12,509 bases of DNA. Origin: Promethearchaeia archaeon. GTDB lineage: Archaea; Asgardarchaeota; Lokiarchaeia; Sigyniarchaeales; SOKP01. Shown piece after piece: positions 1,704 through 5,292 of this stretch. The notes under the pieces are model-generated. The model saw only the letters and a list, made by a program, of their open reading frames with translations, was not told the DNA's origin and ran no database searches. The position numbers and the translations under genes are program-made. The stretch's first letter is position 1; the number at the start of each line of letters is the position of its first letter. Location of the stretch: NCBI GenBank assembly GCA_029856105.1, contig JAHQWH010000237.1, positions 1 through 12,509 of the forward strand, written 5' to 3'.

Positions 1704-3380
1704 TTACAAAAGTTTTTGCAAATTTAATTCTAATCCCGCAACGGGGAACTCCAGTTTAAAGTTTAACAATACTTCGGGATGGATTTCTCCAATCTCTCCA
1801 ACCTTTTCACCATTTACATAGATATCCCCATAACGACCGTTAATATAACTAGGGTTCTTCTCAGGCTTAATTTCGTATTTATCGTAAAGCCCAAGTGCAA
1901 TCATTATGAAATCTAAAGTCGACCTTATTTCTGTAAAATCAGCGTCTTCGTGGTACGATGTCGCTGAAAGGTGAATTTCTCTTTTTGCACCTGTTTCCTC
2001 TTCTTTCGAAAGTAAAACGACATCTCCAACTTCAAAGATTCTAATTGGTTTCTCTTCGGATATGTTAAATCGTATCGTTTCCATTAATTTAGGCAGTATT
2101 GAAGTCCGCGTGGTATTGTATTCTTTTGATACAGGGTTTGCAATTTGAATTAACTTGGATTCATCCATCTTTTTGTTCATATAATCGAATTGTTTTTCAG
2201 AATTTGATAAAATGAAATTAAGAACTTCTAAATATCCTGCTCCGACCATAATTCGTCTTATTTTATTAGAAAACGATTGAATAGGGTGATATTCTCCTAC
2301 GCATCCTTCTCGAATGGTTTTTGGTAAATTAAAATAACCATAACCGATCGCAACTTCTTCAGTGAAATCAACTGGATGCATTATGTCACCTCGAAAGGCA
2401 GGAACATAAATGTCTAAATATCCCTTTTTATTGGATCTTTTAGCCCCCATCCTACATTTCTGAAAACATTTAATCATTTCAGCGGCAGATAAATTCAGCC
2501 CAATATAATCGTTAACATAATCAATTTCAACTTCCCATTTTTTTGAATCTAAATTTGGGGTATTAATTTCTTTTTCTCCTTCGTAATTTACTTTTACACT
2601 TTCAATTTTCGCTCCCATGTCTGATAATGTCGTAGATAAGATGTTTAGAGCAAGATTTACGGCGTTAAAATCGGTACCAGTCAAATCTAAGAATAAATTT
2701 TTCGTTTTTTCAGTTACAGTTGTAAGAACTCCGTTTATTATTGGAGGAAACGAAAGAACTTCGTTATTGCTATCAAAAATTACCGGGTAAACGTCTTTCC
2801 CTTCTAAAATGGGAGCGTATTCAATGCCTTTATCGTGAAGTAGTAAAATCTCTTCTAAATTCATGGAATACCCATCTCCATGCAAAGGTGTAAAACTTAC
2901 TGAACCTGGTTCCACGGCAGTATATCTGTATGGGGGTTTTACTTTGTCTAAATCGTGTACTCCAATCGCAACTTTCTTTCTATCTCTTCCAACGGCCCAG
3001 TGAAGGTGCTCTTGAATGGTCATTAAGGTCGCTACCTCGTCCTCATCTAAATCAATATCCCGAACTATTCCACATACGATGTAAGGTCTTACTTTTTTTA
3101 CGCTGGGGTCTACATTCATCACAATGTCGCTTGGTGTTACGTCGAATGAAGGTACACCTAGTTCAATTTCGTAATAACCTTTAAGAGTTCTCGCTATACC
3201 TTCTGGACTAGAAAAATCAGGTCGATTTGGATTATATTCAACTTTGACTTTTTGTTCTTCCTCGTTAATATCTTCTAAATCTAAACCTATCCACTGCAAA
3301 TCGTACTCTAATTCTTTTAGATCTAATTTTTTTCCAACTAATTTTTCTAGTCTTTCAATTTTTAATTCGAGTGTTGGTAT
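1704..3380 (-). CDS. pheT: Phenylalanine--tRNA ligase beta subunit (archaeal type); start extended to ATA at 3380
   Basis: Motifs NRPDFSSPEGIAR, GRDRKKVAIGVHDLD, SFPPIING, RGDIMHPVDFTEEVAIGYG and GEIHPEVL. The frame stays open 27 codons upstream of the TTG at 3299 and gives (M)PTLELKIERLEKLVG, a typical MPT N-terminus, 7 nt after SD-like GAGGCG. Confidence 0.96.
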   Translation of the reverse strand: MPTLELKIERLEKLVGKKLDLKELEYDLQWIGLDLEDINEEEQKVKVEYNPNRPDFSSPEGIARTLKGYYEIELGVPSFDVTPSDIVMNVDPSVKKVRPYIVCGIVRDIDLDEDEVATLMTIQEHLHWAVGRDRKKVAIGVHDLDKVKPPYRYTAVEPGSVSFTPLHGDGYSMNLEEILLLHDKGIEYAPILEGKDVYPVIFDSNNEVLSFPPIINGVLTTVTEKTKNLFLDLTGTDFNAVNLALNILSTTLSDMGAKIESVKVNYEGEKEINTPNLDSKKWEVEIDYVNDYIGLNLSAAEMIKCFQKCRMGAKRSNKKGYLDIYVPAFRGDIMHPVDFTEEVAIGYGYFNLPKTIREGCVGEYHPIQSFSNKIRRIMVGAGYLEVLNFILSNSEKQFDYMNKKMDESKLIQIANPVSKEYNTTRTSILPKLMETIRFNISEEKPIRIFEVGDVVLLSKEEETGAKREIHLSATSYHEDADFTEIRSTLDFIMIALGLYDKYEIKPEKNPSYINGRYGDIYVNGEKVGEIGEIHPEVLLNFKLEFPVAGLELNLQKLL

Positions 3381-3396: not shown

Positions 3397-4932
3397 TTAA
3401 TATGGTTGTTGTCTTAGCCATTTGATTGGATTAACGTACAAATCTCTAATGTCCTTCCGACCGTAGTATAACATTGCTATACGCTCAAGTCCTTGACCCC
3501 ATGCTAAAACTCGAGTGGGTTCTTTGATGCCCCAAGGATACGTTACTTCTGGCCTAAATATTCCCGAACCTCCCATTTCTAACCATTCTCCTATTTTATC
3601 GTAATACACAGAAACTTCCATACTTGGTTCGGTATACGGAAAAAACCCTGGTCTAGTAATAATTTTTTCAAATCCCATTTTCTTGTAAAATTCTGATAAT
3701 AAACCAATTAAGTCGCTTAAATTTACATGGTCGTCAATTACAATACCTTCTACTTGAGTGAATTCAGCTAAATGTGATTTATCTAATTTTTCGTTTCGGA
3801 AAGTTCTATCGATGCAAAAGACTTTTACAGGAGTTTTTTCGTTGTCTCTATAAAATTTAGCCAAACGCCTTATAGTTGTGGAAGTTGTATGGGTTCTTAA
3901 TACTGTTTGTTTTGCAACATTTTCGTCCCATTTATAACCCCATCCAAGCGAATTAGAATCGCCCCCATTTTCGTGCGTAGCTTTAACAGCCATTACTCTA
4001 TCTTTTTCCGGTAATTTCGCGATTTTTGGATTGTTTAAATAGAAAGTATCTTGTAGTTCGCGGGCCGGATGGTCTTGCGGTTGAAATAACGCGTCAAAGT
4101 TATAAAATGCGCTTTCTACGATCGGTCCTCTTATTTCCGTAAAACCCATCGAAATAAAAATCTCTCTGATTTCGTTAATGAGATTAACGAGAGGATGGTA
4201 TTTTCCCCCTTTCAATGAAGGTCCTGGTTTGGTCACATCAAATGCTTTTAAATTGTAATCTTTCCAAGAGCCAGAGCTAAGCATTTCCGAGGTGAGTTTG
4301 CTTACTTGCTTTAACTCTTTAATCTCAGATAATTTTACATCTCTACCCTTTTTTGTTAGAAAAATAATTCGATGCGTTTTTTTTGATTTTCTTATTAATT
4401 TCCTTTTATTTAGAAGGTCTAAGCATTTCAATTCATATTTTGATAATTTAGAATAGTCGATTATTGGACTCTTTTCGAATTTTTTCAAAAATTTTTCGTC
4501 TTCTGTTGCGGGGAACTCTTCAGCAACGATGAAGATCTTGTTTTCTCCTGTAGCCTTACTTTGAGCGATCCAACGACTCTTCTTCATGTTAGAAAGACCA
4601 ACGTAAAAAATCTTTTTGTCTAGTTTAGATTTGGTAAGGAATTTTGTTATATCAATCTCTTTAATGTCAGATTCAATCAATAAATCAAGCAATCTACGCT
4701 CCGGAAACCCGATCTCTAAATATTTTAACCCCTCATCGTTTAAAGATATTTGATTTAATTCTTCTTCTCTGAACCCACCTAAATTTTGATCGATGAGATC
4801 GTTAATAGCTGCCATGAGTACTATATAATCAACATTTAATTCTTTTGCTAATTCTATTGCCATAAGCTCTGTGCTTTTACTCTTCAGAACTTTGAGAATT
4901 TCAATAACCTGTTTCTTTAATTTAATTGTCAT
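3397..4932 (-). CDS. pheS: Phenylalanine--tRNA ligase alpha subunit (long archaeal/eukaryal type)
   Basis: Motifs FYNFDALFQPQDHPARELQDTFY, LRTHTT, FRNE..D.SHLAEFTQVEG, FPYTEPS, GSGIFRPE and AWGQGLERIAM, with an N-terminal winged-helix-type extension. Confidence 0.98.
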   Translation of the reverse strand: MTIKLKKQVIEILKVLKSKSTELMAIELAKELNVDYIVLMAAINDLIDQNLGGFREEELNQISLNDEGLKYLEIGFPERRLLDLLIESDIKEIDITKFLTKSKLDKKIFYVGLSNMKKSRWIAQSKATGENKIFIVAEEFPATEDEKFLKKFEKSPIIDYSKLSKYELKCLDLLNKRKLIRKSKKTHRIIFLTKKGRDVKLSEIKELKQVSKLTSEMLSSGSWKDYNLKAFDVTKPGPSLKGGKYHPLVNLINEIREIFISMGFTEIRGPIVESAFYNFDALFQPQDHPARELQDTFYLNNPKIAKLPEKDRVMAVKATHENGGDSNSLGWGYKWDENVAKQTVLRTHTTSTTIRRLAKFYRDNEKTPVKVFCIDRTFRNEKLDKSHLAEFTQVEGIVIDDHVNLSDLIGLLSEFYKKMGFEKIITRPGFFPYTEPSMEVSVYYDKIGEWLEMGGSGIFRPEVTYPWGIKEPTRVLAWGQGLERIAMLYYGRKDIRDLYVNPIKWLRQQPY

Positions 4933-5109
4933 GTCTTAAAATCAAAGTCATTTTACTTTTCGTTATATTTTTTCTAAATCATTAACATTTTTAAATCTTT
5001 CGTGGAATTAATCGTTTTAAATTGCTCGTTCATGAATTAGAACGATAACTTGGGATTAAATAAAGTATACAATTAATTATAAAACGATCTACTCTTTTAT
5101 ATAACCGCA

Positions 5110-5151
5110 GCCAAGGGAAGGAAATTAAAATAATTTAGTTATTCCCTTGGC
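5110..5151 (-). promoter_or_regulatory. GC-rich stem-loop upstream of pheS (candidate attenuator/pause hairpin)
   Basis: Perfect 10-bp inverted repeat GCCAAGGGAA (5110-5119) / TTCCCTTGGC (5142-5151), plus an inner 6-bp stem AAATTA/TAATTT (5122-5127 / 5131-5136), in an otherwise very AT-rich intergenic region. Confidence 0.7.
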
Positions 5152-5228
5152 CAATTAAAGAAGTTAATGATAAATGAATCTTTATAGAATTGTTTTGAAT
5201 TGAGTAATAAATAATTAAAAAGCTTCAT
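5139..5228 (-). CDS. Putative Phe-rich leader peptide, 29 aa: MKLFNYLLLNSKQFYKDSFIINFFNWPRE
   Basis: ATG preceded by GAGAGGAG with a 6-nt spacer; 5 Phe, 2 Tyr and 1 Trp; tandem Phe23-Phe24 immediately before the hairpin; same strand as and upstream of pheS-pheT-pheA. Confidence 0.65.
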   Translation of the reverse strand: MKLFNYLLLNSKQFYKDSFIINFFNWPRE

Positions 5229-5234
5229 AATATA

Positions 5235-5242
5235 CTCCTCTC
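5235..5242 (-). promoter_or_regulatory. Shine-Dalgarno site of the leader ORF
   Basis: GAGAGGAG-TATATT-ATG, one of the clearest SD sites in the window. Confidence 0.7.
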
Positions 5243-5292
5243 AAATATTCAATAACTATAAAATAAATATCAATATTCACTAAAAAATTTTC

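Follow-up and report, generated by a model that had tools for sequence, protein, structure and literature searches.

A leader ORF with clustered Phe codons and a covarying hairpin precede pheS-pheT-pheA in Asgard archaea, and probably form a ribosome-read phenylalanine sensor

The genes for the two subunits of phenylalanyl-tRNA synthetase (PheRS) and for a chorismate mutase-prephenate dehydratase (pheS, pheT and pheA) are preceded, in an Asgard archaeon, by a 360-nt gap that carries a small open reading frame (ORF) with Phe codons near its end and an RNA hairpin beginning a few nucleotides after the last of them. The gap lies on a 12,509-nt stretch of DNA (contig JAHQWH010000237.1, assembly GCA_029856105.1; hereafter the window), which stems from a metagenome-assembled genome (MAG) of a Promethearchaeota, in line with the archaeal host assumed in the original prediction, and near-identical DNA was found in metagenomes from marine and subsurface sediment. 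We consider this element to be, probably, a ribosome-read Phe sensor acting in cis on pheS-pheT-pheA. Comparison with relatives shows a conserved frame, a cluster of cognate codons, a fixed geometry between codons and stem, a covarying stem and linkage in cis to pheS, and it is on these features that the proposal is based. The gap, the Shine-Dalgarno (SD) sequence, the 29-codon ORF, the 10-bp hairpin and the position of the stop codon are all present as originally described, and consist of the following parts:

5242-5235, minus strand: Shine-Dalgarno-like GAGAGGAG, followed by a 6-nt spacer and the ATG at 5228
5228-5139, minus strand: leader ORF of 29 codons plus TAA, peptide MKLFNYLLLNSKQFYKDSFIINFFNWPRE, with 5 Phe and 8 aromatic residues
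5174-5157, minus strand: Phe-codon cluster, codons -11 to -6 (TTT ATC ATT AAC TTC TTT), with the tandem TTC-TTT at 5162-5157
5156-5152, minus strand: 5-nt spacer AAUUG between the last Phe codon and the stem
5151-5110, minus strand: hairpin H1, a perfect 10-bp stem of GCCAAGGGAA (5151-5142) and TTCCCTTGGC (5119-5110) around a 22-nt loop
5109-5101, minus strand: nearly invariant tail UGCGGUUAU, UGCGGAU in most relatives

To judge from 58 non-redundant leaders, the small ORF is real and under selection at the codon level. Its frame (+1, counted from the first nucleotide of the stem) is open over at least 20 codons in 53 of them, versus 8/58 and 19/58 for the other two frames. A canonical start codon is found in 55 (38 ATG, 17 TTG), the median length is 29 codons, and the in-frame stop (TAA at 5141-5139 in the window) is retained as TAA, TGA or TAG. 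Most leaders have a CTTGAG(A/T)AG motif 9-16 nt 5' of the start codon, and the AGGAG of the SD in the window complements the anti-SD at the 3' end of the source genome's own 16S rRNA (...GGATCACCTCCT). The peptide itself drifts: the N-terminal two-thirds cannot be aligned among relatives, and the C-terminal residues are PRE in the family and become GPGN, CPGH, GPGF or GPRN in leaders with a one-base shift between frame and stem, whereas a stop located 5' of the stem leaves none of them. An NNG codon invariably precedes CCA, its G being retained for pairing and its amino acid being free to change. We looked for a conserved small protein and found no amino acid sequence kept beyond codon-class bias, apart from the Phe positions. 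This combination of an open frame and kept Phe positions with unconserved N- and C-termini is characteristic of a leader peptide and not of a small protein with a function of its own. One genome (G009, leader L003) presents a natural deletion, in which approximately 76 nt spanning the leader promoter and the ORF start are gone: the upstream gene ends 284 nt before pheS, and the Phe cluster, hairpin and tail are intact with no canonical start codon before them.

Phe codons are strongly positioned within these leaders, being found at codon -6 in 98% (always as TTT), at -7 in 82%, at -9 in 79%, at -11 in 64% and at -10 in 43% of them. On average, codons -14 to -5 contain 3.8 Phe, where the local composition would give 1.9 and the two other frames have 1.5 and 1.8; the 15 codons preceding -14 contain 1.1. 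The cluster is also kept in lineages of 43-51% GC, where base composition does not favour TTY codons. Among 16 representative lineages, 15 have 5 nt between the last Phe codon and the first paired nucleotide and one (genus g12) has 6 nt, even though these lineages differ in the stem sequence, in the register between frame and stem, in where the stop lies and in their GC content (20-51%). The stop codon itself lies at stem nucleotide +11 in most lineages and at -1 or -2 in two. Since its position varies while the Phe-to-stem distance is constant, the conserved variable is the Phe-to-stem and not the stop-to-stem distance. The original prediction had considered release at the stop codon as a possible decisive event, an idea that we abandon: some lineages have the stop 11 nt into the stem and others immediately 5' of it, all with an unchanged Phe-to-stem distance. 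In the leaders L095 and L096 (genus g12) and L192, in which the stop is just 5' of the stem, the Phe codons are at -2 to -5 and the distance of 5-6 nt is kept; the ATG of L095 corresponds to an ATT in L096.

This geometry can be set against the size of the ribosome. The footprint of the archaeal ribosome reaches approximately 15 nt 3' of the P-site codon (PMC7261190), so that the spacer and the initial 4-5 nucleotides of the stem would lie beneath a ribosome that awaits Phe-tRNA at codon -6. The first stem nucleotides within its reach form three basal G-C pairs. By these published footprint sizes, the RNA structure is positioned such that a ribosome stalled at the Phe codons would alter its folding.

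The hairpin is, from its pattern of substitutions, an RNA structure on the pheS-sense strand. The local fold has a predicted energy of -18.7 kcal/mol (z = -3.0), with 1 of 200 shuffled sequences being equally stable, and the leader stop codon forms the first three nucleotides of the loop. In the alignment, 95.6% of the H1 cells are paired, one pair being GC in 31, GU in 10 and AU in 7 sequences, and G-U pairs arise only if the pheS-sense strand is read. The only change in the 5' arm is a synonymous AGG to AGA, accompanied by a compensating C to U. Between families AA:UU is replaced by CC:GG, and a G-C pair is flipped to C-G in genus g12. Other lineages have different stems altogether (CCCCGGGAA/TTCCCGGGG, CCCCGGGC/GCCCGGGG, CCCCCGG/CCGGGGG, GCCAGGGCAAT/ATTGCCTTGGC, CCCAAGAGA/TCTCTTGGG and GCCAAGGAAT/ATTCCTTGGC), every arm having its exact complement, and the loop sequence is free to vary.

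The helix may extend further at its base. In the window, CGGUUA of the tail (5107-5102) can pair with UAAUUG, which comprises the spacer and the last U of the Phe codon TTT, so that the helix would begin at the Phe codon. Across the family this corresponds to a 4-bp extension AUUC:GGAU (alignment columns 42-45 with 97-100) that is 65-96% pairable, with one pair altered on both sides in five sequences. We regard this tail-spacer pairing as a weak candidate; if real, it would explain why the tail is conserved. We dropped two other candidate partners of the tail, the Lys-Phe codons and the Gln-Asp-Ser codons, as 61-66% of the cells were paired and no clear covariation was seen. The tail (GGCUGCGGAU, 5111-5101) shares the words CUGCGG and GGAU with the 3' region of the 16S rRNA (CCUGCGGCUGGAUCACCUCC, contig C34), which is probably a coincidence.

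The element is widespread and strictly tied to its locus. Of the 134 genomes in the family, 95 contain a single match to a strict hairpin pattern (approximately zero for a reversed-pattern control), and a covariance model detected the element in 99 of 126. H1 is unique in the source genome; a repeat or mobile element was considered and rejected, the hairpin arms co-occurring only once in that genome. All 23 pheS loci of the same genus for which the upstream region is available keep a gap of nearly equal length, in which the loop varies but hardly any change is seen in the arms, in the TTCTTTA that precedes the stem or in the GGCTGCGG that follows it. The element lies 175-230 nt upstream of pheS in every locus examined, and stays beside pheS where the upstream neighbour is not the cytidylyltransferase-like gene found in the window. 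Homologous leaders with other stem sequences are present in a GC-rich sister family and on five metagenome contigs. The original prediction had made its case dependent on conservation in relatives, and the ORF, the Phe codons and the hairpin are indeed all kept in two families and in metagenome lineages, with compensatory changes in the stem. No leader was found at the two loci read from family f2 (L029 and L030; G038 is a single-contig assembly), which have a PPAT-like gene 39-47 nt from pheS, and no equivalent element was seen in the pheS upstream regions of Thermoplasmata, DPANN and other archaea. An Rfam scan of the window yielded no match at E-values up to 1, including to Phe_leader, and a tRNA scan gave none. 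At L026 and L145 (family f4, genus g6), we noticed a Phe-rich frame (FSFIFIIFFTT) with neither a start codon nor a clear hairpin.

Further conserved blocks in the gap resemble promoters and bear on how pheS is transcribed:

5291-5280, minus strand: AAAATTTTTTAG, approximately 55 nt 5' of the small-ORF start, candidate transcription factor B recognition element (BRE) and TATA box of the leader promoter
5042-5024, minus strand: block TTCTAATTCATGAACGAGC with partial dyad symmetry, TCTA..TCGA..TAGA in relatives
5004-4960, minus strand: pheS-proximal promoter-like block, with CACGAAAG-ATTTAAAAA (BRE/TATA), GATTTAGAAAA and ATATAACGA

The first of these is nearly invariant across the family, also where the upstream gene differs, and its place is taken in the GC-rich lineages by a conserved CAATCATTTATTC. 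It is a candidate for the leader's own BRE/TATA, and could alternatively be an oligo-T terminator of the upstream gene. The block at 5042-5024 is conserved in sequence with no conserved RNA pairing, and is a candidate transcription-factor site or RNA 5' end. The pheS-proximal block displays the strongest primary-sequence conservation in the gap, with 0 base pairs predicted by RNAalifold, and has a counterpart (AATCCTTAAAAATA) at the equivalent place in GC-rich lineages; it also holds a direct repeat (AGATTTAAA ... GATTTAGAAA). From their sequences, these two blocks look like a core promoter and a transcription-factor site, and would constitute a second layer of control for pheST-pheA. RNA evidence comes from the library X19 of a 97%-identical relative, two contigs of which, one spanning 4775-5023 and the other extending to 5034, go beyond the pheS-proximal TATA on its upstream side. 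These are contigs only, with DNA carry-over possible, and they leave the small ORF and hairpin without cover, so that they are uninformative about the latter either way; they are compatible with longer transcripts, which is a weak hint. Three other RNA runs (X17, X18 and X20) were set aside as probably DNA. X19 also contains a 71-nt fold-back contig with its turn at approximately 5024-5034, within the conserved block CTAATTCATGA. Fold-back contigs are a type of artefact formed at RNA 5' ends during cDNA synthesis, and this turn may mark the 5' end of a transcript or of a processing product.

We propose the following mechanism, in which the stalling, the occlusion of the hairpin, the termination output and the direction of the response are inferred from the arrangement described above. 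The leader would be transcribed from its own promoter (approximately 5291-5256) and its 29-codon ORF translated. If charged tRNA-Phe is scarce, the ribosome would stall when one of the final Phe codons (TTC-TTT, 5162-5157) occupies its A site, and its leading edge would cover the 5-nt spacer and the first 4-5 nucleotides of the stem, so that neither H1 nor its basal extension could form. If Phe-tRNA is plentiful, the ribosome would reach the stop codon and leave, allowing H1 to fold. The folded hairpin, together with U-tracts in many lineages, would most likely stop or destabilise the archaeal RNA polymerase, either intrinsically or via aCPSF1/FttA. With a stalled ribosome, transcription would instead cross the spacer and the pheS promoter into pheS-pheT-pheA and raise their expression, such that the leader adds regulated read-through transcripts on top of those from pheS's own promoter. 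The design would thus be a single hairpin occluded by the ribosome, and not the three-hairpin switch of Escherichia coli.

The two halves of this proposed attenuator differ in strength. Its sensor half is strongly supported by the comparative evidence; termination and read-through into pheS are plausible, and weakest in this window. In favour of termination, T5 or longer tracts occur within 25 nt after H1 in 38% of leaders, versus 19% of random intergenic windows, and in many family members a T5-T7 run directly follows the tail GGAU. In GC-rich lineages, in which runs of T are informative, we counted 10 such runs in the 110 nt after H1 where 0.71 would be expected, and in L190 a TTTTT immediately after H1 is followed by two further hairpin-plus-T5 units. 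Several observations weigh against the attenuator. The window contains no T5 or longer tract between H1 and pheS, with a T4 at +24 only, and the enrichment of U-tracts in the AT-rich family is only about 2-fold among mutually related sequences. A conserved second hairpin or antiterminator was not found by RNAalifold, which predicted H1 only, in genus g22 and in the pheS-proximal 125 nt, and constrained folds with the 5' arm masked left the downstream hairpins unchanged. Archaeal RNA polymerases terminate at oligo-T without requiring a hairpin, so that a role of H1 in termination would be without precedent. Three leaders (L003, L093 and L096) have no canonical start codon. Finally, every lineage has a complete BRE/TATA-like block, strongly conserved, between its leader and pheS, and pheS can therefore be transcribed without the leader; the proximal promoter that the original prediction had raised as a caveat is thus borne out by the conserved block at 5004-4960.

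Some of these points would also fit with the same sensor having another output, namely gating the access of aCPSF1/FttA in a manner similar to Rho-dependent polarity, affecting the processing or stability of a leader-pheS transcript, or modulating the pheS promoter by read-through. FttA/aCPSF1-dependent termination is coupled to translation in archaea. The window lacks a U-tract after H1, the search for an antiterminator structure gave none, the sequence conservation of the stem and of the tail UGCGGAU exceeds what an ordinary terminator hairpin would require, and an RNA 5' end is possible near 5034, inside a conserved block. Yet the U-tracts right after the helix in many lineages and the tandem hairpin-plus-T5 units of L190 resemble terminators, and we identified no candidate motif for protein binding or cleavage, so that we find such an output unlikely, while giving it some weight. 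We assign a still lower probability to an independent small transcription unit, whose peptide or small RNA would act in trans or not at all, with pheS-pheT-pheA expressed solely from the proximal promoter. Conserved promoter-like elements precede both the small ORF and pheS, as this explanation would have it, the hairpin and U-tracts could merely end a small transcript, and action in trans is known for attenuator RNAs and leader peptides of bacteria (PMC7968998, PMC7298713). It does not account, however, for a peptide that is unconserved save for its Phe codons and whose C-terminus shifts with the frame, nor for the strict linkage to pheS whatever the upstream neighbour; moreover, the enriched codon matches the downstream gene and has a Trp counterpart before trp operons, and a simple terminator would leave the invariant 5-nt codon-to-stem distance unexplained.

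Aminoacyl-tRNA synthetases can bind their own mRNA, as does the one encoded by E. coli thrS. H1 might likewise be an RNA or DNA operator recognised by a protein, through autoregulation by PheRS or through a transcription factor, the ORF being incidental. The high conservation of the stem and tail sequence within the family and the palindrome that the arms form in DNA would agree with such an operator, but the G-U pairs and compensatory changes indicate RNA pairing, not sequence recognition, and in other lineages the stem sequence is wholly different while the Phe codons and their spacing persist. The loop is not conserved and hence offers no anticodon mimic, and the frame-specific openness and Phe periodicity would have no explanation; we therefore hold an operator to be very improbable. 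Least credible of all is that the ORF and the hairpin are mere coincidences of AT-rich intergenic sequence. A GC content of 32% does make Phe codons frequent, Phe-rich mini-ORFs precede unrelated genes in the source genome, and by a rough estimate, which is not a tool result, approximately 7% of 30-codon frames would be open by chance at the base composition of the window. The conservation in relatives excludes chance, which a single sequence could not do: constraint specific to frame, codon and distance over more than 100 genomes, in two families and in GC-rich lineages, refutes it.

The proposed Phe sensor invites comparison with the attenuators of pheM-pheST and pheL-pheA in E. coli (PMC3082878 for pheL), with which it shares a short ORF 5' of the genes with a run of Phe codons towards its 3' end, an RNA stem overlapping or abutting the end of the ORF, and the same target genes, the archaeal PheRS genes and pheA forming one unit. 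The presumed logic is also alike, in that stalling of a ribosome at Phe codons would alter how the RNA folds and increase expression of the genes downstream. Unlike these systems, the archaeal element has one conserved hairpin in place of the alternative 1:2, 2:3 and 3:4 pairings, and it shares no homology with them in sequence or structure, as seen from the lack of an Rfam match. Approximately 200 nt, including a second conserved promoter, separate the archaeal hairpin from the gene, the U-tract is lineage-dependent and missing in the window, and the chemistry of termination must differ, the polymerase being archaeal. The element shows no mutually exclusive antiterminator and terminator pairings, which a single-hairpin variant does not need. 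One such variant is the pyrBI leader of E. coli, in which a single terminator hairpin is occluded by a closely following ribosome and UTP is sensed via polymerase pausing. Both have one hairpin with an ORF entering its 5' arm, such that a ribosome would block the folding; at pyrBI the blocker is a translating ribosome, whereas here it would be one held up at cognate codons that end exactly 5 nt short of the stem. In its architecture, the element is closer to a single ribosome-occluded hairpin such as that of pyrBI than to pheM or pheL.

Leaderless short ORFs with Cys codons in mycobacteria (bioRxiv 10.1101/834739) and Rho-dependent leaders of the tnaC type likewise place a cognate-codon mini-ORF before the matching pathway and have no three-hairpin switch, and their output may rely on a termination factor or on effects on translation. 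They differ in being bacterial and in lacking a conserved hairpin at a fixed codon distance, and the factor in the archaeon, if any, would be aCPSF1/FttA. The T5-T7 tracts that follow the hairpin in many lineages recall the archaeal oligo-T terminators acting with aCPSF1/FttA, from which the window departs in having no T5 or longer tract. To our knowledge, archaeal terminators need no hairpin, and none has been reported to be gated by a leader peptide. Full-text literature searches returned leader-peptide systems that were all bacterial, and no description of an archaeal one was found.

A related arrangement was found for tryptophan. Among relatives with a trp operon, members of four genera have, just upstream of the first trp gene, a mini-ORF that ends in WQWPW, WFWVWCW, WFWAWRW or WPW (L207, 5713-5775; L208, 5986-6069; L211, 5860-5985; and, on the reverse strand, L212, 5932-6027). 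These mini-ORFs contain 3-4 TGG codons within 7 codons (two TGG only in L212), and each runs into a hairpin that encloses its stop codon, approximately 150-390 nt (L207, L208 and L211) or 300 nt (L212) before the first trp gene. The cognate leaders that the original prediction had anticipated before other operons thus have a Trp version in relatives, with none detected in the source genome itself. In the 92%-complete assembly of the latter, trpA (PF00290) and hisG (PF01634) were not found, so that sister leaders cannot be sought there, and its single HMGL-like gene has no Leu-rich leader. A generic scan of the source genome for mini-ORFs rich in one amino acid was discarded, since its top W-, T-, H-, M-, V- and F-rich matches precede unrelated genes and are thus attributable to chance. 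We noticed that a search of 26 genomes from the same genus likewise failed to turn up trpA in almost all of them, and yet pheA is retained and lies under the Phe leader. This raises the possibility of auxotrophy for Trp and His, but not for Phe, in this genus. ARAGORN predicted 7 tRNA genes in the 3.66-Mb source genome, with no tRNA-Phe among them, and tRNA genes are either largely unassembled or of a form missed by this program, e.g., intron-containing or split.

The genes around the gap are arranged as follows, and the Pfam domains agree with the pheS-pheT-pheA identity originally given to those downstream:

5715-5293, minus strand: cytidylyltransferase-like gene, the 5' neighbour of the gap
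4932-3397, minus strand: pheS, PheRS alpha subunit (Pfam tRNA-synt_2d, E = 2e-88)
3380-1704, minus strand: pheT, PheRS beta subunit (Pfam B3_4, B5 and tRNA_synthFbeta)
1657-548, minus strand: pheA, with chorismate mutase, prephenate dehydratase and ACT domains (Pfam CM_2, PDT and ACT)

The gap extends from the stop of the cytidylyltransferase-like gene (5293) to the ATG of pheS (4932). In the pheT frame, the first canonical start is a TTG at 3299, and 27 further codons are found 5' of it, up to an ATA at 3380 that lies 4 nt 3' of a GAGGCG motif and 16 nt 3' of the pheS stop. The N-terminus extended in this way (3380-3297, minus strand) encodes I/M-PTLELKIERLEKL..., and from this sequence context the start of pheT is probably the near-cognate ATA at 3380.

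Leader-peptide attenuation is a textbook form of bacterial control that depends on a ribosome following the polymerase. With the Trp mini-ORFs of relatives taken into account, we lean, by a small degree, towards the view that Promethearchaeia use a set of leader-peptide attenuators (for Phe, and for Trp in relatives), in which a ribosome stalled at cognate codons, a set few nucleotides ahead of a single hairpin, gates termination by a eukaryote-like RNA polymerase. A conserved, cognate and geometrically constrained case such as this would be strong comparative evidence for regulatory coupling of transcription and translation in Asgard archaea, and would show that an RNA hairpin can influence the archaeal polymerase or its termination factor. 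The element is compact, with approximately 120 nt, and testable in vitro or in a model archaeon, and its layout of cognate codons, a few nucleotides and a stem offers a rule for spotting leaders in uncultured archaea. If the proposal is true, ribosome-coupled attenuation arose in the archaeal lineage closest to eukaryotes, in a form built unlike the bacterial three-hairpin switch.

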